A DNA stretch of 37,744 nt from Malassezia furfur (Eukaryota), in NCBI GenBank assembly GCA_052055015.1, contig JBQJIT010000062.1; one strand, written 5' to 3'. The position numbers and the translations under genes were made by a program. The notes below the pieces were generated by a model. The model searched no databases. It worked only from the letters and a program-made list of their open reading frames with translations, and had not been told where the DNA came from. Below are positions 6,943 to 32,463 of the stretch, one piece after another (the stretch's first letter is position 1; each line of letters opens with the position of its first letter).

Positions 6943-8619
6943 ATGGCGCAGATTTTTCAAAACAATCCGCGCAGCGCGGGCCTGTTCCTCGGTGGAAACC
7001 GGTTGACGGGGTCGGATATTCGTGACCAAAATGTGTTGGCGGTGCAATCCATCGCGAACATCGTCAAGACGTCGCTTGGGCCAGTCGGACTGGACAAGAT
7101 GCTCGTCGACGACATTGGTGACGTAACCATCTCGAACGACGGGGCGACTATCCTGCAGCTCTTGGAAGTCGAGCAGCCTGCCGCAAGGATTCTGGTGGAA
7201 CTTGCGCAGCAGCAGGACAAAGAGGTGGGCGACGGCACGACGTCAGTGGTTGTCCTGGCTGCCGAACTTCTGCGCCGCGCGAATGAACTGGTCAAGAACA
7301 AGATTCATCCCACGACTATCATCACGGGCTACCGCCTGGCATGCCGCGAGGCGATCAAGTACATCCAGGACCAGCTCGCAGTCAAGGTTGACGGGCTCGA
7401 CCGGGAGAGTCTGCTGAACGTCGCCAAGACGAGTGTGTCGAGCAAGGTGATCGGCAGCGACGACGACTTCTTCGCGCAGCTTGCTGTGGATGCCATGCTC
7501 GCGGTCAAGACGGTGAATGGTCGCGGCGAGACCAAGTACCCCGTCAAGGCGGTCAATGTGCTCAAGGCGCACGGCAAATCGGCGCGTGAGTCGCTCTTTG
7601 TGCAGGGCTACGCGCTGAACTGTACCGTCGCATCGCAGATGATGAAGACGCGCATCACCAACGCCAAGATTGCATGCCTCGACATTAACCTCGTCAAGCA
7701 GCGGATGCATATGGGCGTGCACATTACCATTGATGACCCCGAGCAGCTCGAAAAGATCCGCGCGCGGGAAAGCGAAATGGTGCTGGAGCGTGTGCGCAAA
7801 ATCCTCGCGACGGGCGCCAACGTCATCCTCACCACCAAGGGTATCGACGACCTGTGCTTGAAGGAGTTTGTGCAGGCAGGCGCCATGGCCGTACGCCGCT
7901 GCCGGAAGGAGGATTTGCGCCGGATTGCCAAGGCGTCGGGTGGTCAGTTTGTGAGCAGCTTCGCGAACCTAGATGGCGAGGAATCCTTTGACGCAAACAG
8001 CCTGGGCTACGCCGACGAGGTTGTGCAGGAGCGCATCAGCGACGACGAGCTCATCATGGTGCGTGGCACGAAGCAGTACAGTTCGAGCTCGATTGTGTTG
8101 CGCGGTGCGAACGACTATATGCTCGATGAGATGGAGCGCGCGCTGCACGACAGTCTGAGTGTCGTCAAGCGCACGCTTGAGAGTAACTCGGTGGTTGCGG
8201 GCGGCGGTGCTGTGGAGACCGCTTTGGATATCTACTTGGAAAACTTCGCCACGACCCTTGGCTCGCGCGAGCAGCTGGCGATTGCCGAGTTTGCGCAGGC
8301 GCTGCTGACTATCCCCAAGACGCTCGCTGTGAATGCGGCCAAGGACAGCACGGACCTCGTCGCGAAACTTCGCGCATATCATACCGCCGCCCAGAATGCG
8401 GGGGTTGACGACCCTAAAAAGACGCTTCGCTTCTTCGGATTGGACTTGCTGAACGGTACGGTGCGCGACAACCTGCGTGCCGGTGTCCTGGAGCCGACTG
8501 TGAGCAAGCTGCGTTCGCTCAAGAGCAGTCTGGAAGCTGCGACGAGTCTCTTGCGCATTGACGACGCGATTACGATTCCCCCGGAGCAGCCGCGTGAGGA
8601 TCCGCACGACCATATGTAA
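6943..8619 (+). CDS. TCP1: Chaperonin CCT/TRiC subunit alpha
   Basis: [52 protein letters not shown]. Intronless, 558 aa. Confidence 0.97.
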
Positions 8620-8650: not shown

Positions 8651-9935
8651 CTATACCTTCGCGTGCGTCCCATTCGTTTTGTCGCCATGGTATATGGAAT
8701 GGAACTTCGACACAAGCGAATTCCAGCCCCAACTGCTGCGTCGCATATGGCCCCCTTCCTGCACGGTCTCGGGCTCGTGGTGCGCCGGGTGATGCCCAGT
8801 GGCGTCCTCGCCTGACTCCTTGTCGGCATGGTATTGTGATGGCGTAAACGCCGGCTCCTCGTCATCCGAGAACAAGGGCGACGACGGCTCGTCACGGTTC
8901 TGCGCAATTTCGGCCGCCTGGTTGAACCTCTGGGTGGCGCGTACAGCCGCAATCGCCGTCTTCCACTTGCTCCGGTAGTTATCGCGAAGACCGGCGCTGA
9001 TGTCTTGCGTTTGGTCTCCGTCGCGCTCCAGCACCATCTTGAACCAGGGGTGCTCGAGCGCTTCTTCAGCGGTGATGCGTTTCTCGGGGTCCAGGGTCAA
9101 ACACCGCTTGACGAAATCGATCGCCTCTGGGCTCACCGAGCTCCAGTACTTTTCGTGGAACTCGATCTGGCCGCGCTCCAACTGTTTGCGGAAGAGGTCC
9201 GGATCTGCCGACGAGAAGGGGGCATATCCACACAGCATAGCATACGTCACCACGCCAAGACCCCAAATGTCCACGGGTTTCCCGTGCCCTTGCCGCGCAA
9301 TGACCTCGGGCGCCGCGTACCCTACACTGCCGCACAGCCCCTGCAAGTCGTGGTTGCTGTTGTTGCGTAGGTGCGCCGCAATGCCGAAATCGACCAGCAC
9401 AATGTTAGCGTCTTCAGCCGGTGTGCGGTACAGGATGTTCTCGGGTTTGATATCCCGATGCACCGTGTTGTGTCGGTGCATGTATGCGATGGCATCCACG
9501 ACGACATGGATAGTGCGGCACGCAGCTAGCTCCGTGAACTTTCCGCGTGCTAGGCGATCAAACAGCTCGCCACCGTCGGCTTCTTCGAACACAAGATAGA
9601 ACTAGACTTGTTAATGGCGTGAATGACATACCTTGTCCTTGGATTCGAACCATTCAATTAGCTTCACAATGTGGGGATGATCGAGACCCTGTACGGTCTC
9701 GATCTCGCGCATTACCACTTCTTCGTGACCTTTGAGCAGGTGCTTGCTCACGACCTTGACAGCAACATTCCGTGGACCGCCTGCCTCATTGCGTGTGGCT
9801 GCTCGGACCACTCCAAAGGTGCCCTTGCCTAGTGTCTTATGAAAGGTATAATCTTGTTTTTTTGGCTGGTTGTCAGAGTGTGGGGCACGAACCATACGAT
9901 GGTGGCTGGCGATGCAGCAAGTCCGACGCCGTCAT
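8651..9935 (-). CDS. CMK1: Ca2+/calmodulin-dependent protein kinase (Cmk1/Cmk2 family), spliced
   Basis: GKGTFG, VAVK, FESKDK/FYLVFE joined by a 30-nt intron at 9602-9631, HRDIKPEN, DFG, YAAPE and a CaM-binding-like KWKTAIAAVRA. Probable exon 1 (MTASDLLHRQPPSY) from ATG 9935 with a 27-nt intron at 9866-9892; the first-exon frame is problematic (see findings). Confidence 0.88.
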
Positions 9936-10205: not shown

Positions 10206-10285
10206 TACGGCGTGAGGGACTCGAACCCCCCATTGTTGCTGTTCTAAAGTGGAAGGCAACTGTTATACCCCTTAACTAACGCCGT
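10206..10285 (-). tRNA. tRNA-Gly (anticodon TCC) with a 9-nt intron
   Basis: Minus strand ACGGCGT-TA-GTTA-AGGGGTA-TAAC-A-GTTGC-CTTCCA-[CTTTAGAAC]-A-GCAAC-AATG-GGGGG-TTCGAGT-CCCTC-ACGCCGT-A folds as a cloverleaf. Anticodon at 10251-10253, intron at 10241-10249 (position 37/38). Confidence 0.9.
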
Positions 10286-11003: not shown

Positions 11004-14000
11004 CTACTTGGTGCACTGGATCACATTGTCGTGAATGTATCCATCAAAGGCACCCTCGTAAGGGATCGCTGGCGCACTGAGCAGCAGCGAACTCTCGATC
11101 GGTGCCAGCACATTGGTGGTCGGCCGGCTCAGCGTAATGAGCACCAGTCCCGCCGCCTTGATCGAAGGGACCAGTTCCGGGACACACTCAAGGAGCTCGG
11201 TGTTGGCCATAACACCGAGAAGGTTGTTGCCCTTGGCGAAGCGGACGCCCTCGGCGATACTCGACTGCCGCGGGTCTGCCCTGGCCGGAAGCTGGGCCAC
11301 AGCCGCATCGTGCGCCAAAGTGGTCTCGAGGATGAAGAAGACGGCGTCTGGGTGAGTGCGGAAGGTACATACAGTTGGGCTGCTTCCAGTTCAGTGCGAC
11401 ACACACGCCCGGCGAGGCGCTGCTGAAGAACAGCTGGCGGCTTTGCCCGCGGCTGCGGTCGGCGGCGTCGTACACGGCGTGTAGCGTCGCGTCCACGCAA
11501 TCGTTCACCGACACGGGCGCCGCGCCCGAACCCGGGGCGGCGTCGAGGTGCACCTCCAGTGCAAGCCCCACGGTGGGGGGTACGGTGGCCAGCAGCGTGT
11601 CGAGCGGGACGAGGGCGTTGGCGAGCTGGTTGCTCCAGTCGGCCATCGTTCGTGCCTCGGCGTCCTGCACGTCCCATCCGCGGCCGGTTTGTGCGGCGAT
11701 CTCGAGAAATTCTTGCTTGGTAACCTGGGACACGAGCGGTGCCCACACGGAAAGCGGGAGCGTGCGCTTCACGCAAGCCACTGGCACCATGTCGCTGGTG
11801 TAGCGCACCACCACGCGCAGATAATCGCCCGACAGCGACGAGGCAGTGACGTACGATGTGGACTCGGACGTGGGCGCGTCGGGCGCGCGCGGCACATCCG
11901 CGCGCGTCGCGGGCACCGCGGCCGGGCGTACGGTGCCTGCGGCGAGGTGCGAGAGGCCCGTGATGCGACGCTCGCTCGACGACGCGGGTACGAGCGAGAT
12001 GGGCTGGTTGCTGGACGGCAAAGTGCTCTTCCAGTACGTCTCGACGCGACCGCCGATCTCCAGCTGGACACTGCCGAACGGGCGCACGCACTCGACGGCG
12101 ACATCGATGTGGCCCACAACGTTTAGGTGCCAGTCAAACAGGGGCAGTTGGAGCATGCCACGACTCGGAAGCGTGCCCAGCATGTCCGGGAGCAGCGCCG
12201 TTTTGGCGATGCGCGACGAGCCAAACGGCGGGAAGAGCTCCCACTCGAGGTGGAACTGGTCGAGGTTCGCAATCTGGAAGGTGATGTCGTCGCGGTCGTC
12301 GGCCATGGGCAGGATGAGCGTGTGCGGAATGCCCGCCTCGGCACTCTGCTCCGCGCTGCGCGGCGTTAGGACAAGCTTCAGCGAGGAGGTGTGGCCCGCA
12401 AACAGCTCAAAGCGGTCCGGCACAGGACGTTTGTGCAGCACGATGCTCTTGTTGGACAACGAGATGGTGAGCAGCGAGCGCTTGTCGAGGTAGTTGTGCC
12501 CGTATGTGCGGAAGGGGATGATGGGCGGCGGGAGGTACAGCGAGGGGATGCCGTCCGCGTCGCCGTCCATGTCCATGTCCACGTCCGCATGGCCCTCAGG
12601 CGACGGCTTGAGCGCCGCGGGAGATACCTGCGATGCCGACGCTCGGGTCGACGTCGGTGCCTGCGTACGCGCAGTATCGAGGAGCAGACGCGTGCACGCC
12701 ATCCATCCGTTCCACGCTGCATAGAACACGGCGTGTCGCCCCTTTTCGTCGATATGGGCGAGCGACGCGCCGCGGTCAAGCAGCAGATGCACGCACGTCA
12801 TATGCCCGGCCTCGGCGGCGTAAAAGAGTGGCGTCCAGAGCGTGCCCTTTTCCGTGGCGTCCACCTCGACCCCCGCGTCGAGCAGCACGCGTAGGCACTC
12901 GGTATGCCCCGCGCGCGCCGCAAGTGCCTGCGGCAGCAGGCCCTCGGTGTTGGGCTCGATCTTGGCACCGCGGTCCAGGAGCAGGCGCGTGATGTCCACG
13001 AATCCGCCCTCGGCAGCGAGCGCGAGCGGTGACAAATCCGACGACTCGGTCTTGCCGCGCGGCGCACTCCCGACCGACGCCTTGTGGTCGAGCAGGATAC
13101 GCACGATCTCGGTATGCCCGCGCACCACCGCATGGATCAGCGGCGAGAAGCCATCGAGGTCGACGGCGTCGACGAGCGACGCAGCGTCAACGGCGTGCGC
13201 CGACTCGCGACTCGCTGGCAGGCTCAGCAGGTACCGGCAGATGTCCTCGCGGCCGTGCATCGCCGCGTAGGCGAGCGCCTCGCGCCCGTACACGTCGCAG
13301 GACCGCACCGGTACGCCATGTTCCACACATGCTTTGACGAGCTCGAGCTGGTTGGCGAGCGTGCTGATGTGCAGCGTTGTGCGTGCATTGATGTCGTCGA
13401 CAAACGCGTAGTTGGGCAGCTCTGCGACGATGGCGGCATGAATCGCCGGCGCAGACGCGGTGGCCAACGCGCGCCACACCTGGTGCTCCAGGCCGCTGGC
13501 GACGGGCGCCTGCGGGTCGAGCTTGTCGTCGCGCGCAGCTGTGTCGCCGAGCGCGGCCTGCATGTCTGACCAGGTCTCGCGGCGTGCGTCGGCGAGAAGC
13601 TGCTTGGCGTCGTCGGTGCGCGACTCGTGCACCGCGGCGTTGATCTGCTCACCGATCTCGTGGAGGAAGCCCTTGTCGGCGGATGAGTCACGCTCCGCGT
13701 CAAAGTCCATGCGGCGCTCCGAGTCGAACACGAGCGCGTCGCTGCCGGTAGGTGTGTTGGCGGCATGCAGAAAGATGGAGCCGGGGATGTTGGTCGCTGT
13801 GTATGGCAGGGCGCCCTTCAGGATCGCCGCCTCGTTCTGGTTCGACGATGCGGGCAGCTCGTGGCCCTCGGCGAGGCTCTCGAGCTGCAGCACACTCGCC
13901 GCGGCCAAATCGCTCATCTCGGCGATAAACTCGCGGTTGAAGCAGGCTGGGTGAGCAAGGTGGGCGACGTACGCTGCGCATCAACCTGGCGTGCCAGGTA

Positions 14001-14610
14001 CAGCTCCTTGGTCTGCGACTTGGACCGCTTGTCCCACTTTTTCAAGATCTTTCGGAAGCCAGTCGCATTGATCTCGATGAACTGCTGCAGTTTGGCCAGG
14101 TCCTTCTCAAAGTAGTGGAAGCCCTCGAGGAGCGCGACAAACGACGGCGAGTCCTTGGAGATGGCCACTTGCCCCGCGTGCTCGCTGCCCGGGCGCGCAT
14201 GGCCTGTCGCCGAGGCAATCAGATGGCGCTTCTTGCTAATGAGCGTTGTGAGGCGTGCGCGCAGGTCTGACTCCTTCTGCAGGTAGAACGCATTGATCTT
14301 TTCGAGCTCGCGCTCCAGCTTAAAGAAGAAGGCGGCCTTGTGGATCTGCAGCTCAGACGCCGGTGAGTCGGCTGCGAGCGGCGGCTGGTCGCTCGGCGCA
14401 TCCGAAGGTGGGCGCACACTGGTGGCGAACAGCGCGGCATCGCCGAGCCGGCCCTTCTCGAGTGAGTTGATGATCTGGGGTCAGTGCGGAGAGGACGTGC
14501 CTTCTTCAAGAACTTGTAGTCGAGGTAATACGACCCCCATCCTGAGATTTGCTGGCTGAGAATTTGCTTGCCGAACTGCGGCGTGAGCATACGCGCCAAC
14601 GCACCTTCAT
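11004..14610 (-). CDS. PHO81: Pho81/Nuc-2 CDK inhibitor (SPX + ankyrin repeats + GDPD-like domain), 5 exons
   Basis: Spliced MKFGKQI...YLDYKFLKKIINSL (SPX), FFFKLERELEKINAFY, INATGFRKILKKWDKRSKS, ankyrin repeats, IPSLYLPPPIIPFRTYGHNYL, LNWKQPNYAVFF. Introns: 14576-14604 (29 nt), 14475-14500 (26 nt, GC-AG), 13947-13972 (26 nt), 11348-11372 (25 nt). Confidence 0.93.
14475..14500 (-). other. 26-nt GC-AG spliceosomal intron in PHO81
   Basis: AAG|gcacgtcctctccgcactgaccccag|ATC. Removing it restores the SPX motif DYKFLKK-IINSL; branch CTGAC lies 5 nt before the 3' end. Confidence 0.8.
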
Positions 14611-14696
14611 TCTCGCGCACCGGTGCCGTGCACCCGAAGCGAGCGCGCAACGGTAACGCCGCGTACGGCCCCGCCTTGGGTCCTGCGAGCGACCGT

Positions 14697-14721
14697 GCCC
14701 ACGTGCGGACGCGCCCACGTG
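14697..14721. promoter_or_regulatory. Tandem Pho4-type E-boxes upstream of PHO81
   Basis: GCCCACGTG at 14697-14705 and 14713-14721 (CACGTGGGC on the PHO81 strand), about 90-110 bp upstream of the ATG. Confidence 0.6.
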
Positions 14722-14869
14722 ACGGGCGCCCGTTTGCCACTACACCGCGGTCGGACGTGTGTCACTTGGTCCGCAACGCCACGAGCGTGACGAAAAGGTT
14801 GGATCAGCTCCGCTGCAGCTTGACAAGAGCTCTGCGTTAATTGAGCGAGCGTCAGCCGTCCTATACAGT

Positions 14870-17800
14870 ATGGCGTCCATGGAGGTAGGTCAGCGACGTG
14901 TGCGGCCATACTGACGCGTCCAGGCGATTCTTGACTTTAGCCAGGAGCTCGATTTGGTGCTCCTGGACAACATCGTGGCTGCCATGTATACCGGCGCTGG
15001 TCCTGACCAGAAGCTGGCGCAGCAGACACTAGCACAGTTTCAGGAGCACCCGGATGCGTGGCAGCGCGTCCCGGTGATCCTGCAGCAGAGCAGCAGCTCG
15101 CAGACGAAATACATTGCGCTCCAAATCTTGGACCGGCTCATCTCGACGCGCTGGAAAGTGTTGCCCGTGGACCAGCAGCAGGGCATCCGCAACTTTATCG
15201 TCGAGATGATCGTCCAGTTGTCGTCGGATGACGAGTCGCTGCGGCGCGAGCGCACGCTGCTGGGCAAGCTGAACACGACGCTCATTCAGATCCTCAAGCA
15301 GGAGTGGCCGCACAACTGGCCCAACTTTATCCCCGAGATCGTGTCGTCGTCGCGCGGCTCGCTGTCGATTTGCGAAAACAACATGGCCATCTTGCGCCTG
15401 CTCTCCGAAGAGGTCTTTGATTTCTCGGCGGAGCAGCTGACGCAGGCCAAGGCGCGCAGCCTCAAGAACCAGTTCTGTGGTGAGTTTGGCGAGGTGTTCC
15501 AACTGTGCACCGAAGTCCTCGAAAAGGCCACGAAGCCGTCGCTGATCAAGGCGACGCTTGAGACGATGCTGCGTTTCCTCAACTGGATCCCGCTCGGGTT
15601 CATTTTTGAGACGAACGTGATCGACCAGCTCGTGACGCGCTTCCTCGAGGTGCCCGACTTCCGCAACGTGACACTCAAGTGCCTGTCGGAGATTGTCAAC
15701 CTGAACGTCGGGAGCGAGTACGACCCCAAATTTGTGGTGCTGTTCAACATGGTGATGACCTCGGTGAACCGTATGATCCCCCCGTCAACCGACATTGCTG
15801 GCGTGTACGAGACCAGCACGGATGCGGACCAGGAGCTTGTGCTGAACCTGGCGCTGTTCTTGAGTAACTTTCTGATCTCGCACGTGCGTCTCCTCGAGAA
15901 CGCTGAGAACCAAGAGGTGCTGCTGAACGCGCACCTGTACTTGATCAAAGTCTCGCAGGTGCCCGAGCGCGAGGTGTTCAAAATCTGCTTGGAGTACTGG
16001 GCGAAGCTCGTGAGCGAGCTCTACGAAGAGTACCAACAGTTCCCCATGAACGACGTGAGCTCGGTGTGGGGCCTCAACCTCGGCGGCGCTGCGCCTCAGC
16101 GCGCCGCAACGGGCCGCAAGGCGTTCTACACGAGCATTTTGTCGAACCTGCGCTTGGTGATGATCGAGCGCATGGTCAAGCCCGAGGAGGTGCTGGTGGT
16201 GGAGAACGACGAGGGAGAGATTGTGCGCGAGTTCCTGAAAGAGTCGGACACGATTGTGCTGTACAAGGCGATGCGTGAGGTGCTGGTCTACCTGACGCAT
16301 CTGGACGTGCTCGACACGGAAAACATCATGACCGAAAAGCTTGCCAAGCAGGTGGACGGCTCCGAATGGTCCTGGGCAAACCTCAACACGCTGTGCTGGG
16401 CGATCGGCAGCATTTCGGGTGCAATGAACGAGGAGACGGAGAAGCGTTTCCTGGTGACCGTCATCAAGGATTTGCTCGGTCTGTGCGAGATGAAGCGCGG
16501 CAAGGACAACAAGGCGGTGGTGGCGTCCAACATCATGTACATTGTCGGGCAATACCCCCGCTTCCTCAAGGCGCACTGGAAGTTTTTGAAGACGGTGGTG
16601 AACAAAAACTTTGAGTTTATGCACGAGACACACGAGGGTGTACAGGACATGGCGTGCGACACCTTTTCGAAGATTGCGCAAAAGTGTCGGCGCCACTTTG
16701 TGATGCAGCAGGCGGGCGAGCAGGAGCCGTTTATTGACGAGATCCTGCGCAACCTGTTGCAGATCACGGTGGACCTGTCGCCGCAGCAGGTGCACACCTT
16801 CTACGAGGCGGTGGGCTACATGATCACCGCGCAGCCGAACCGTGCGACGCAGGAGCGACTCGTGGAGAAGCTCATGGAGCTGCCCAACAACGCGTGGGAC
16901 AACCTGATGAAGCAGGCGCACAGCAATGTTGACGTTCTGAGCTCGCCCGAGAACATCAAGGTGCTCTCCAATGTGCTCAAGACCAACGTGTCGGCGTGCA
17001 CGTCGATCGGCCCCTACTTTTTGCCGCAGATCGGGCGTATATACCTCGACATGCTCGCGCTGTACCGCAGCGTGAGCGGCATCATCAGCGCCAAGGTCGA
17101 GGCCGAGGGCCTGATTGCCACCAAGACGCCCATGGTGCGCGGTCTGCGTGCGATCAAAAAGGACATCCTGCGCCTCGTCGACACCTACATGCGCCGCGCC
17201 GACGACCTCGAGTCGGTCAACGCGAACCTGATCCCCTCGCTTCTCGACGCGATCCTTGGCGACTACCACAACAACATCCCCGCTGCGCGCGACGCCGAGG
17301 TGCTCAACGTCATGGCGACCATCACCACGCGACTTGGCAGCTTGCTTACGGACAAGATCCCACCGGTGCTCGATGCCGTGTTTGAGCCGACGCTCAACAT
17401 GATCAACCAGGACTTTGCCGAGTACCCCGAGCACCGCGTGGGCTTCTTCAAACTGCTGCGTGCCATCAACCTGCACTGCTTCGCTGCGCTGCTCGATTTG
17501 CCCCCGGCCAAGTTCAAGCTGACGATCGATTCGATCATCTGGGCGATCAAGCACACGATGCGCGACATTGCCGACACGGGCCTCAACATCTGCGTGGAGC
17601 TAATCAACAACATTGCCAACACGGACCCGGCGATCTCGAGCGCCTTTTTCCAGCAGTATCTGCTCAACATGCTGCAGGACATTTTCTACGTGCTCACCGA
17701 CGCCGACCACAAGAGCGGCTTCAAGACGCAGTGCCTGCTCCTGGCGCGCATCTTCGAGCTGATCGAGACGGAGCGCATCACTGCGCCGCTCTGGGACCCG

Positions 17801-18214: not shown

Positions 18215-18959
18215 TTACCCACGCGTGCCGACCGTCAGCAGCACAAACACACACACGCCGATCAACACCGCAACAATCACCGTGTCGCGGCGCCGACGGC
18301 GCGAAATGAGTGTCAGAATGCCGTTCAGCCCTGGGATCTGTGCTGCGGCATGCGTCATCCGCTGCAGCGTCTGCTGCAGCTGCGCGCGCTGCGCACGGAA
18401 CGCGTCCTGGGTTGCGAAAGCTTGACTGCGTTGTCAGTTGCGCAACGTACTCGAGTGTGTCGTCCATCATGCGCTGCGACCGGTCCAGGCGTTCGCGCTC
18501 GTTCAAGTACGCCTGCGTCTCAGAGGTGTGATCCGCACGATACGCATCAATATCTTCCTTCACATGGCCTAGCAGCTGCTGCCGGCTCACCGTGTGCTGC
18601 AGGTGTGTCTTGGTGCGGAAAAAGTCACGCTCCAGTTCCATAAGCAGTTCGCGGTGTCGCTGGATGGTATGGAGCTGCGTCTGAGTTGGTGGTAATGCAG
18701 GATCATTGAGAAACGTCGAGAGCTCGGCCTGTGCCTCGGCATATTGGGCCAGGAGCGTCTGGATCTCGACCTCGAGCGACGCGGGGTCCGGCGTTGTGGA
18801 CGACGTCCCACTGCTCATATCAACAGTAACGGCAGGAGTCGTGCTAAACGGCGATGCAGATACGGCCACCTCGGTCGCCAGCTGTGCATACGCGCTCAGC
18901 TTTGCGTCGAGCCGCTGCTGTGCCTGCCGCACGCGCCGTGCCTGCGCGTCCCACGACAT
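18215..18959 (-). CDS. GOS1: Golgi Qb-SNARE Gos1
   Basis: MSWDAQARRVRQ...IQRHRELL...ERERLDRSQRMMDDTLD. A 25-nt intron at 18426-18450 restores QAFATQ...IPGLNGILTLISRRRRRDTVIVAVLIGVCVFVLL (C-terminal TM anchor). TAA at 18215-18217. Confidence 0.9.
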
Positions 18960-25054: not shown

Positions 25055-25570
25055 CTACTCAGCCTTGGGCTTCTCGCCCGGGGCATCTTGAAGCAGGCCC
25101 GCCTTTTGCAGCATAGCCTCGAGCTCGCCACTCTGGTGCACTGTTGTTAGTGTATGGCTTCGCGTACTGTTCAGCATAATATCACAACCACCAACGAATT
25201 CGCCGTTGATGTACACCTGGGGGATAGTGGGCCAATCACTGAATTCCTTGATCCCATCGCGCAACTCCTGGTCTTCCAAGCAGTTGTAGGTAGCAACCAG
25301 GTCCGGCTTCACACCCTGGACCTGAAGAATTTGGAGCACAGCACGACTGAAACCACACTGGGGCATCTCCGGCGAGCCCTTCATGAACACCACCAGGGGG
25401 TCCTCGTGGACCGCCTTCTCGATCTTCTGACGAGTCTCCGTCGAGAGAAGACGCATAAGCGAGGGCATCGCCGGCGCACGGGCCGCGAGGCGCGGCACAG
25501 CGGTAGTCGGGCGCTGGAATTAGAGCGCAATACCTACCAAGAGGGTCGCAGCCGCCTGACGAACGAACAT
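25055..25570 (-). CDS. GRX5: Mitochondrial monothiol glutaredoxin Grx5, 3 exons
   Basis: FMKG...[22 protein letters not shown] 25570 gives presequence [15 protein letters not shown]. Introns at 25514-25537 (24 nt, contains an in-frame TAA) and 25141-25167 (27 nt). Confidence 0.95.
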
Positions 25571-25693
25571 GACAGTGGTGGCGAACCGAGCGATGACGTT
25601 CCGTGCGCATTTATTTCCCTGCATGGGAATTACAATCGCCGTTCTTTTTCTTCCCAGCACATTTTTTTCGGTGGTGTGGATTGCACTGCATTG

Positions 25694-25884
25694 GTATGTA
25701 ATAGTGGGCGGCATCGCAGGGATGATTCTTTTAGATGACGAGTATGAGGACTGGATCGTATGCATTCCGTGCTGCCCCAGAGCGGCGCCAACCTTGGCCC
25801 GCGAATCCGATGCTTCCAACATTGGCTACCAAACCTGAGCTTGATATGCCGCCTGCCCTCGGTGTGAGGACGTACTGACCTCAG
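25694..25884 (+). other. 191-nt 5'-UTR intron of TSR4 (snoRNA host)
   Basis: Donor GTATGT at 25694, branch TACTGAC at 25873-25879, acceptor CAG ending at 25884, 2 nt before the TSR4 ATG. Confidence 0.7.
25719..25838 (+). ncRNA. Box C/D snoRNA, snR75-like (predicted guide for 25S Gm2288 equivalent)
   Basis: Box C GGGATGA 25719-25725; guide TTAGATGACGAG 25731-25742, complementary to LSU rRNA CTCGTCATCTAA; D' ATGA 25744-25747; TTGGCTACC 25822-25830, complementary to the neighbouring rRNA GGTAGCCAA; box D CTGA 25835-25838; flanking stem GGCGGCAT (25707-25714) / ATGCCGCC (25846-25853). Confidence 0.85.
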
Positions 25885-25886
25885 TC

Positions 25887-27423
25887 ATGTCCGCTCTCAG
25901 ATACGACGAAGACTCTGATTACGGGTCCGATGAAGAAGAAGGAGTGTCAACCGTGCATCTCGGTCTTGCCGATGGTCCGCTTGAGGGCGACGACGAAAGT
26001 AACCCACTCGTGTCCCGTATTGGTGGTCGCCCGGCATGGTTGCCACTCGCTGCGAACAACCTGCCACCTGCCTCGCTCATTGAGTGTTCGCAATGCAAGC
26101 AGCCCATGGAACTGTTGGTACAAATCTTTGCCCCACTCGAGGATTCTCCCTATGATCGCAACCTACTGGTTTGGGGTTGTGCGCTTGCGGAATGCCAGCG
26201 CAAAGCGCAAGGCAGGTACGTTGGAAATGCGGTGCAGCAGGATGAGAAGCAATTTCTTCACTTGAGTTTGTAATGAAACCAAACCCAACTTTGACTATTT
26301 TATACCTTGGCTGATCTGCACCGCATGACTGTGAACCGGGCTAACCCTCAGTGTGCGCGTCATTCGCATGTTGAAATACAATGCCCGATGGGCAGCTAAG
26401 CTCGAAAAGCAGCGCAAGAAACAACAAGCGCGGGAGGCGCGACTCGCCGAGCGCAAGAAGAAGGAAGCAGACGCTGAGGCAGAGAAGGCGCGTCGTGAAC
26501 GGGCAACCAACCCCTTCAGCATGTCTGCCACAACGAACAGCAGTTCACTTTTTGGTACTGGCTCGCTCTTTTCTTCTGCGCCTCAACTGTCAGAAGCAGA
26601 CAAAAAGGAAGACACTTTGGCGCAACATACCCCATCGGAAACCAACGATGCCGACGAATCTGAGGATGAAAGCGCGAGCGAGTACGATGAAGATGAACGG
26701 CTCGCGGAAGAACTGGCCATCAAGGCGTCGCTCGAGCAACAACGTGAACAACTCGGCGCAGAAAACGACTGGGCGGCTACTGCGCCCTGCTATACCCCCG
26801 CACTCTATCTCAACACTATCCCGGAGCCGTCGCGCACGTCGGAAAAACTGGACCCGCCATCCAATGCGACCCTCGAGCGTGCTGCCGAGTCCGGTGCGGA
26901 CATGGATCAGGGCGATGAAGAAGAGTATGAGCGCATGCGTGTCGAAGGAATCGATGAAGTCTTCGAGCGTTTTACGGAGCGTCTCGGCTCCGAGGCACGC
27001 CAAGTGGTCCGGTACGAGTTTGATGGGATGCCGCTACCCTTCACGGGGCTTGGCAGCGTCTACCGTCAACTCTGGCCTGCCAATAAGTACGATGGATCCA
27101 AGGTGCCACCGTGCCCGCAATGCGGTGCACCTCGTGTTTTTGAGGTACAGCTTATGCCAAACCTTGCCAATCTCTTGCGTGCAGAGCAGTTGAAGCACCG
27201 CACGGCTTCGACAGCAGGCGCGGACGAAGAAATGCGACGCCGCGCAGAGATCGCCTCGACGCTTGGCATTGAGGTGGAAAAGGCGGGCGATCGATCCATG
27301 CTTCCCACGGGTATCGTGTGGAGCACGGCCATGGTGTTTGTATGCAGCAAGGACTGCAGTCAGCACGACGGTGAGGGTTGGGCCGAAGAATGGACGGCCG
27401 TGCAATTCGAGCAAGAGATATAG
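25887..27423 (+). CDS. TSR4: Tsr4/PDCD2L (uS5/Rps2 chaperone, PDCD2_C domain), 2 coding exons
   Basis: VHLGLADG, SRIGGRPAWL, CSQC...MELLVQIFAPL, WGC; a 136-nt intron at 26216-26351 gives GSVRVIR; QVVRYEFDG.PL, CPQCGAPRVFEVQLMPNL, WSTAMVFVCSKDC, EEW. Confidence 0.9.
26239..26314 (+). ncRNA. Box C/D snoRNA, snR47/U36C-like (predicted guide for 25S Am2220 equivalent)
   Basis: Inside the TSR4 coding intron. Perfect 11-bp terminal stem ATGCGGTGCAG (26227-26237) / CTGCACCGCAT (26316-26326); box C AGGATGA 26239-26245; guide AATTTCTTCAC 26251-26261, complementary to LSU GTGAAGAAATT; D' TTGA 26262-26265; C' GTAATGA 26270-26276; box D CTGA 26311-26314. Confidence 0.85.
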
Positions 27424-31644: not shown

Positions 31645-32463
31645 ATGCAGCGCGCGGATTTGGAAGCATCGTTGGCGTATATACGCGCCGCAGAACGGAG
31701 TTTACGAACAGCTATGGGAGAGGGTGACGATAAAGACAGCATCGAGCTCCCACATGATCTGCCTGCAGCATATTGCAGGCTTCTGAAAGATTATCGCGCA
31801 CTATGTGCTCAGTACGAAAACGAGCGGAAGGCATGGCTTGAATTCAAGGATTGGTGGCGTGCGCGTATACGCGAGCGACGCGCCAAAAAGCGATTGAAAC
31901 CCGAGTTGAAAGATAAGGACGTGATGAGCTCTCCTTCGTCGCGTCGAAAAACCCGCCCACCGCGTAAAACAGATGCTAGCCCAGAACACGGTGCTTCTAA
32001 AGAGAACGCCACGATACCCTCACCGCGCCGGTCGCGCGAACGAATCTTGGAGCACCGTTCGCAAATCCGTGCCCTTCTACACGAGAATCCTAGTTTGTTC
32101 AAAGGAATCGGCCGTTATGCGCATTCCGCCCCTCGCTCAAATACGAATGCCCCAGCAACTGACCCCTCCAAGTCGAATCGAAGGGTCATGCACGCTTCGG
32201 ATTGCGCGTGCTGTCGAGATGTAGGTGTCTGGAGCTAACCTTAGTATTACGCACTCGTTGGGCGTGCATCCACGTCCCACGTAGAGGCGCCCAGCCCTAC
32301 GGATGAGACGCGAAAACAAATCTCATCAAGACATCGACACATGCAACAGCATGATCCCACCCCGCCGGACTATTGGTACGCTATGGGGCTCACGTTTAGG
32401 CAACTCGGGTTCCCCTCGTCAGGCGAGGCCCTCGAAATTAATCGCCGTGCACGGGCGGATTAG
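31645..32463 (+). CDS. SAE2: Sae2/Ctp1/CtIP DNA end-resection factor, 3 exons
   Basis: N-terminal coiled coil. Splicing two 24-nt introns (32221-32244 and 32376-32399) gives MHASDCACCRDYY...SSRHRH...TPPDYWQLGFPS, i.e. the CxxC, RHR and TPPxYW hallmarks. TAG at 32461-32463. Confidence 0.88.

Follow-up and report, generated by a model that had tools for sequence, protein, structure and literature searches.

Introns of ribosome-related genes are textbook hosts of small nucleolar RNAs (snoRNAs), human U36, for example, being carried in RPL7A introns; in yeast, snR47 is an independent gene. The host considered here is TSR4, the gene for the uS5 chaperone Tsr4, as it occurs in a stretch of 37,744 nucleotides (nt) of contig JBQJIT010000062.1 of Malassezia furfur (NCBI GenBank assembly GCA_052055015.1). 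This whole stretch is referred to below as the window; positions are counted from its first letter, and features lie on the plus strand unless stated otherwise. On the evidence of its sequence, the two long introns of M. furfur TSR4 very probably contain one box C/D snoRNA each: sno1, in a putative intron of the 5' untranslated region (UTR), and sno2, in an intron of the coding sequence. These two RNAs are well supported as new members of known snoRNA families, located in a host that has not been described for them, and with a conservation that appears to be genus-wide.

The closest described situation is that of intron-poor fungi, including Malassezia sympodialis, in which snoRNA-bearing introns have been kept in RPL7 (snR59/39) and NOG2 (snR191), and for which a co-expression of host and guide has been proposed (Lim et al. 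2021, PMC8476143). TSR4 resembles RPL7 and NOG2 in being a ribosome-biogenesis gene that keeps a guide-encoding intron in an intron-reduced lineage, but differs from them in the identity of both the host and the snoRNAs, in the presence of two box C/D guides in a single gene, and in the 5'-UTR location of one of these guides. The available sections of that article do not mention TSR4, no publication connecting TSR4 with an intronic snoRNA came up in a literature search, and among the matches listed none dealt, judging by title, with Malassezia snoRNA genes; a 2017 paper describes its own genome annotation of M. sympodialis as lacking snoRNAs (PMC5209728). The idea that long introns persist because they encode RNAs, put forward for TSR4 in the original prediction made from this sequence, fits the present case, but had already been published for RPL7 and NOG2 (PMC8476143).

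Regarding the guides themselves, methylation of yeast Gm2288 is guided by snR75, and that of Am2220 by snR47 (PMC8307265, PMC3116282). Both sites are among the methylation sites common to Arabidopsis and yeast, the A site being shared with human as well; AtU15 is the counterpart of snR75, while AtU36a, human U36 and snR47 are mutual counterparts (PMC3511168, Table 1). In Rfam, snR75 is grouped with U15 in clan CL00045, and snR47 (RF01203) with SNORD36 in clan CL00051. As the original prediction stated for yeast, snR75 is not hosted by TSR4: in Ascomycota it belongs to a polycistron, snR72-78 (PMC3116282 and a fungal snoRNAome survey). In the portion of this survey that is available, the snR75 family is placed at the root of Dikarya, and snR47 is reported only in Saccharomycotina.

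The host was correctly named TSR4 from the start. Its product contains a PDCD2_C domain (Pfam PF04194, E = 8.7e-26, 90.5 bits) and has 87 homologues, several of them named 'related to TSR4' or PDCD2, with such names found in Malassezia and smut fungi, and both the domain and the orthology to TSR4-named proteins identify it as a member of the Tsr4/PDCD2 family. Coding exon 1 (25887..26215; 109 codons plus 2 nt, with the ATG at 25887) and coding exon 2 (26352..27423, carrying the PDCD2_C domain and including the stop codon) are separated by the coding intron (26216..26351, 136 nt; GTACGT...GCTAAC...CAG). Reading exon 1 on past 26216 leads to stop codons, whereas removal of 26216-26351 restores a junction (...CQRKAQG-S-VRVIRMLK...) in gapless colinearity with the full-length orthologues, those aligned at this junction being from M. 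psittaci, M. yamatoensis, M. caprae, M. cuniculi, Violaceomyces and Sporisorium. The protein so obtained is 100% identical to NCBI KAI3626093.1 (466 amino acids, aa; M. furfur CBS9595), whose residues 1-109 are the exon 1 product, and this product is 62-71% identical to the N-termini of full-length orthologues. At this locus, therefore, the window is M. furfur or cannot be told apart from it. Judged by these protein alignments, 26216-26351 is a real coding intron. In smut-like homologues (P0108-P0113, P0038-P0044), the open reading frame (ORF) calls also break at this junction, immediately before a conserved (L/V)(R/K)V(I/V)R motif, so that the position of the intron seems to be kept well beyond Malassezia.

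Within this intron, sno2 (26227..26326, about 100 nt with its stem) is a candidate box C/D snoRNA of the snR47/U36 (SNORD36) type, recognized by its fold, by a structural scan of the window, and by a sub-threshold match to SNORD36. The two strands of its terminal stem (26227..26237 and 26316..26326), recovered both by folding and by the structural scan, form 11 base pairs (bp) at a distance of 1 nt from the boxes. They enclose, in this order, a C box (AGGATGA, 26239..26245), a D' antisense element (26251..26261) of 11 nt exactly complementary to large-subunit (LSU) ribosomal RNA (rRNA), or 13 nt with the initial TT of the D' box included, the D' box itself (TTGA, 26262..26265), a C'-like box (AATGAAA, 26272..26278) aligned to the C' region of SNORD36, an accessory antisense element of 8 nt (26288..26295), a D-guide region (26296..26310), and the D box (CTGA, 26311..26314). 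The predicted fold is better than that of shuffled sequences (z = -2.67).

sno2 shares with SNORD36 an alignment over the full length of the model, an identical D' guide, and a predicted target equivalent to yeast Am2220 or human Am3703, and it shares with snR47 the presence of extra antisense stretches near the target, a feature described for the yeast RNA (PMC3116282). It differs from snR47/U36 in having the TSR4 coding intron as its host, and in that the second guide of the family, a D guide directed to 18S Am619/Am668, is not present in the window. The D-guide region has no convincing rRNA target, nor has the D side of sno1, in three reference ribosomal DNAs (rDNAs), and the duplex that it would form at the 18S-A619 site is not among the best (ranks 17 of 367 and 30 of 352). 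Rfam aligned 26296-26310 to the 18S guide of SNORD36 with several differences, and this stretch is apparently a decayed 18S-A619 guide.

The second candidate, sno1 (25704..25856, about 130-153 nt including the external stem), is of the snR75 type, and is likewise recognized by fold, structural scan and sub-threshold Rfam matches. Its closing stem (25704..25714 paired with 25846..25856, by fold and structural scan) comprises 11 bp, two of them G-U, and is external to the boxes, from which it is 4 and 7 nt away. Downstream of a C box (GGGATGA, 25719..25725), which Rfam aligns to the C box of snR75/SNOR75, come a D' antisense element (25731..25742) with 12 nt of exact Watson-Crick complementarity to LSU rRNA, a D' box (ATGA, 25744..25747), an internal insertion folded into two predicted hairpins (25751..25802), an accessory antisense element of 9 nt (25822..25830), and, 4 nt further, the D box (CTGA, 25835..25838). 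Three close relatives (P0121, P0088 and P0139) depart from the window by small indels and substitutions, chiefly within the insertion 25751-25802, with no change in the adjoining accessory element, D box and stem.

The order of C box, spacer, antisense element and D' box in sno1 is that of snR75/SNOR75, as are the consensus-identical guide, the predicted Gm2288-equivalent target, and the presence of just one methylation guide, next to D'. A further likeness is the accessory element: the second guide region of snR75 provides an extra base-pairing, the mutation of which reduced L2288 methylation four- to five-fold (PMC3116282), and the D-side region of sno1 offers such a pairing beside the target, in agreement with the published description of the yeast element. 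In contrast to snR75, sno1 carries a structured insertion of about 50-60 nt between D' and C', a C box reading GGGATGA, a D' box reading ATGA, and an external 11-bp stem placed 4-7 nt from the boxes, and it occupies a putative TSR4 5'-UTR intron instead of the snR72-78 polycistron of Ascomycota. Both loci thus combine C and D boxes, a terminal stem and an antisense stretch of at least 10 nt; the C, D' and D boxes, stems and 11-12 nt antisense elements that the original prediction saw in the two introns are all there, with stems of 11 bp and antisense elements of 12 and 11 nt.

The intron housing sno1 (25694..25884, 191 nt) is a putative 5'-UTR intron, delimited by canonical signals: GTATGT at its 5' end, a TACTGAC branch site at 25871-25877, 8 nt before the terminal CAG, and this CAG located 2 nt before the conserved TSR4 start codon. 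The boundaries first proposed for both introns were exact, position 25694 being the G of GTATGT, 25884 the G of CAG, and 26216-26351 measuring 136 nt.

Could sno1 be a genuine snoRNA without being intronic? It would then be transcribed from its own promoter, or cut from an unspliced TSR4 leader, and the splice signals around it would be fortuitous or unused. A UTR intron provides no reading frame against which splicing can be checked, strict combinations of intron signals arise by chance in the non-coding parts of the window (about 30 candidates, many of them spurious), and many fungal snoRNAs are independently transcribed, snR75 being polycistronic in Ascomycota. Nevertheless, the signals in question have the same form and spacing as those of the verified short introns of the window and of the coding intron (CTRAC, 2-7 nt, CAG), and the 3' splice site falls 2 nt from a conserved start codon, a place where relatives may have a similar arrangement: among their N-terminal read-through peptides, 8 of the 10 with an extension of at least 8 residues fit, by inspection, a CTRAC...YAG sequence just before the methionine. 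In addition, the roughly 120 nt between the start codon of the divergent upstream gene and 25694 leave little room for a separate promoter, and sno1 and sno2 lie at about equal distances from their branch sites. An independent origin of sno1 is therefore considered unlikely, and the favoured reading is that both RNAs are released from TSR4 introns.

Putative targets were sought in rRNA sequences taken from public metagenome contigs matched by both target sequences with a gap of 45-75 nt. This two-target pattern was found in at least 84 metagenome stretches, with a span of 80 nt in almost all among the matches listed, and the three loci examined were all complete eukaryotic rDNA units according to Rfam. 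In each of these three rDNAs, the sno1 and sno2 guides match the same LSU site with exact complementarity, in agreement with the LSU-directed function initially assigned to them. In one of them, L024, the partner of the sno1 guide is LSU 2599-2610, with G2602 opposite the fifth nucleotide before D', and that of the sno2 guide is LSU 2530-2540, with A2534 at the corresponding place. The predicted targets are therefore the G equivalent to yeast Gm2288 for sno1, and the A equivalent to yeast Am2220 and human Am3703 for sno2. They are 68 nt apart (a distance originally given as roughly 70 nt), the A of sno2 being 5' of the G of sno1, which is precisely the difference between 2288 and 2220 in yeast. 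The accessory elements pair beside these duplexes: that of sno1 with LSU 2586-2594, 4 nt 5' of the guide duplex, and that of sno2 with LSU 2524-2531, directly 5' of the guide duplex with a 2-nt overlap. The sno1 accessory element is not expected to direct any methylation.

Rfam points to the same families as those named in the original prediction. When the interval 25600-26450 was searched with sub-threshold matches kept, the best of these were snR75/SNOR75 in the first intron and SNORD36 in the second, and the letters of both D' guides are identical to the consensus of the matching family; the snR75/SNOR75 alignment of sno1 is local and covers its 5' half only. A control stretch (14300-15000) gave no Rfam match at E <=10.

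The rarity of such structures was assessed by two independent scans. In the structural scan, both strands of the whole window were searched for a C box with at most one mismatch, followed 45-170 nt downstream by CTGA and bounded by a flanking stem. Four matches were obtained, and stems of at least 9 bp were found in only two of them, sno1 and sno2, against a mean of 0.19 such matches in 100 shuffles. A third match (14467-14559, plus strand) has an 8-bp stem, lies inside a minus-strand coding sequence, has no Rfam match, and was rejected as due to chance; the fourth (7243-7325, minus strand), with a 7-bp stem, was treated likewise. The second scan considered rRNA complementarity ending at NTGA, with 200 shuffles as reference. 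Its longest match (12 nt) is the sno1 D' guide, and one of its three 11-nt matches is the sno2 D' guide; another 11-nt match, in the 3' stem of sno2, is spurious.

Evidence on conservation comes from homologues called as ORFs that read from the TSR4 exons into the introns, including those on unannotated contigs. Comparison of these read-through tails and heads with the translated introns of the window gave 18 matches at functional elements, against a single one with reversed peptides. For sno2, the tails of P0089, P0091-P0094 and P0097 could encode the guide together with D', and the P0090 peptide ends at the TGA of D'; in the clusters to which these tails belong, exon 1 shows 64-77% identity to that of the window. 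The C box could likewise be encoded in the tails of P0091-P0094 and P0100, the C'-like box is kept as 'MK' in P0089 and P0003, and the accessory element as 'TLT(IL)' in P0003, P0089 and P0092, although this 8-mer is weak when taken alone, chance matches to its degenerate motif being met in coding parts as well. The stretch from the 5' splice site to the C box varies in its residues from tail to tail, which indicates that it is the boxes and the guide that are conserved. For sno1, the accessory element plus D box is compatible with six of six N-terminal extensions (P0088, P0093, P0099, P0101, P0103 and P0121), and this combined motif has no other match in 121 proteins (39,976 aa), coding parts included. 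A search with a spurious ORF of 89 aa spanning sno1 retrieved nothing beyond this ORF itself and a single near-identical variant.

According to these peptides, guide and boxes are conserved across Malassezia, and conservation of sno2 probably reaches smut-like relatives. The proposal that the arrangement is lineage-specific thus stands relative to yeast, but not in the sense of being private to this genome, as it is common to Malassezia and, for sno2, probably to smut-like relatives too.

Several observations weigh against the presence of two functional guides, and have to be set beside these results. Scores in Rfam are low: 17.8 bits (E = 0.36) for snR75 (RF01185), whose gathering threshold is 40, 18.2 bits for the plant SNOR75 (RF02539), whose threshold is 50, and 18.0 bits for SNORD36 (RF00049), over model positions 1-77 of 77, with a threshold of 30. 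By Rfam's own gathering test, therefore, sno1 and sno2 are not family members, and the TSR4 locus is not among the matches of the whole-window Rfam scans (by gathering threshold and by E-value). The boxes are imperfect, both C boxes having a G in place of the U at position 2 of the consensus RUGAUGA, hence one mismatch each, the D' boxes being non-canonical (ATGA and TTGA), and the C' boxes weak in both RNAs; the fold of sno1 is not better than that of shuffled sequences (z = -1.37). Complementarity beside NTGA is, alone, at background level, with 11 matches of at least 10 nt against 8.9 in shuffles, and 4 against 2.3 at 11 nt or more, so that significance arises from the conjunction of features. 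The rRNA used for the targets comes from metagenome eukaryotes and not from M. furfur. Comparison with read-through peptides amounts to a degenerate back-translation, which yields a strong pattern yet falls short of a nucleotide alignment; one of its 8 guide-motif matches (P0057) falls in genuine coding sequence and is due to chance, and very close relatives (P0121, and P0124 and P0135 of the other M. furfur lineage) are the only ones in which the C box and D' guide of sno1 can be recognized.

That the boxes, stems and antisense elements are mere coincidences or decayed relics, in introns kept long for regulation by structured RNA and producing no snoRNP (small nucleolar ribonucleoprotein), is nonetheless very improbable, for although the sub-threshold Rfam scores, imperfect boxes, background-level complementarity and decayed D-side guide of sno2 would suit it, C box, D box and 11-bp stem come together only at sno1 and sno2 in the window, both guides have the letters of their family consensus and are aimed in the right register at deeply conserved methylation sites, and guide and boxes are kept in relatives as distant as 64-77% identity in exon 1, whereas the adjacent intron residues differ.

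With TSR4 taken as the host of both snoRNAs, a pathway can be proposed from the sequence. Transcription would start from the TSR4 promoter, and both introns would be spliced out, the splicing of the first being itself putative. The excised introns would be debranched, and exonucleases would digest them as far as the portion shielded by the core snoRNP proteins fibrillarin, Nop56, Nop58 and Snu13. These would assemble on the C/D kink-turn, the boxes being brought together by the 11-bp stem. The D'-adjacent antisense element would then pair with pre-25S rRNA, and fibrillarin would methylate the ribose opposite the fifth position upstream of D'. In each RNA, the non-methylating stretch on the D side would pair beside the guide duplex and should stabilize docking, and sno2 would have lost the 18S-A619 guide that is normal in the snR47/U36 family.

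Further relatives give some hint of such a loss in Malassezia. The consensus of the 18S guide followed by NTGA is compatible only with the intron-derived heads of P0053, P0058 and P0065 (33-38% identical), and the head of P0053 also shows the 25S guide, which suggests an older, double-guide snoRNA in the same TSR4 intron of distant relatives. It is conceivable, as a tentative hypothesis that we hold with less than even confidence, that TSR4 is an old, Ustilaginomycotina-wide host of a snR47/U36-type snoRNA, of which smut-like fungi would retain a double-guide form (25S-A2220 plus 18S-A619), the 18S guide having been lost in Malassezia. If true, 18S Am619 would be either lost in Malassezia or guided from elsewhere, and the hypothesis would extend a family reported only in Saccharomycotina in the available portion of the fungal snoRNAome survey. 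In these minimal-intron genomes, moreover, an intron above about 100 nt would then be an almost diagnostic sign of a non-coding RNA inside it, and a predictable cause of broken gene models.

The other introns of the window are indeed much shorter. Eight were verified, all of 24-39 nt, either because they join reading frames (9602-9631, 11348-11372, 13947-13972, 18426-18450 and 25141-25167) or by their splice signals and position (14885-14923, 25514-25537 and 32221-32244). They were sought with a codon-bias map combined with a junction search, a plain open-frame search being too noisy at 61% GC. The original prediction counted 18 other introns of 21-39 nt; their short size is borne out by the verified set, but the count of 18 was not reproduced. 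No convincing further long intron was found in the window, for which complete gene models were not built. The contrast in size agrees with published data, as Malassezia genes are described with 'very short introns' (PMC7426719), and the 5350 introns of the curated M. sympodialis annotation average 30 bp (PMC5389616, Table 2).

TSR4 would accordingly provide another case in which the sole long introns among introns of about 30 nt are those carrying functional RNAs. The general understanding of snoRNAs is unchanged by this finding, which provides a commensal and opportunist of human skin with two well-supported snoRNA genes whose targets can be assigned, and points to a host-gene switch for two ancient guides. 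Unlike in RPL7 and NOG2, the host acts on the 40S subunit and both guides on 25S rRNA, so that a 40S-assembly factor and two 25S guides would share one transcript.

The snoRNA-bearing introns also explain why public TSR4 models disagree (351, 466 and 518 aa in M. furfur; 370 aa in M. brasiliensis). In M. furfur WFD45935.1 (351 aa), the start is placed in exon 2 and exon 1 is omitted; in M. brasiliensis WFC93858.1 (370 aa), some 80 conserved residues are skipped around the intron; and the start of M. furfur KAI3627759.1 (518 aa) falls within the antisense element of sno1, translation then continuing through the 5' intron. Among the four public models compared, only KAI3626093.1 (466 aa) matches the orthologue-supported structure. 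The coding intron is thus already annotated in at least one public record, and the initial suggestion that the arrangement may be unannotated does not apply to it.

TSR4 is flanked downstream by a methylenetetrahydrofolate reductase gene, and upstream, on the opposite strand, by a divergent glutaredoxin-domain gene (25058-25571, minus strand) with introns of 24 nt (25514-25537) and 27 nt (25141-25167). The gap between the glutaredoxin gene and TSR4 is 315 nt, and since the glutaredoxin ATG (about 25571) is no more than some 120 nt away from the 5' splice site of TSR4 (25694), the two genes probably share a promoter region. An upstream ATG (25623-25625) is located 5' of the first splice site, and splicing would place it in a different frame from the TSR4 start (71 + 2 nt); should transcription begin upstream of 25623, this ATG would give a short upstream ORF overlapping the main start.

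Elsewhere in the window, the sole Rfam match at the gathering threshold is a tRNA gene (10206-10285, minus strand; 51.6 bits), in which 11 nt are inserted after the anticodon-loop position, where a tRNA intron would be expected.

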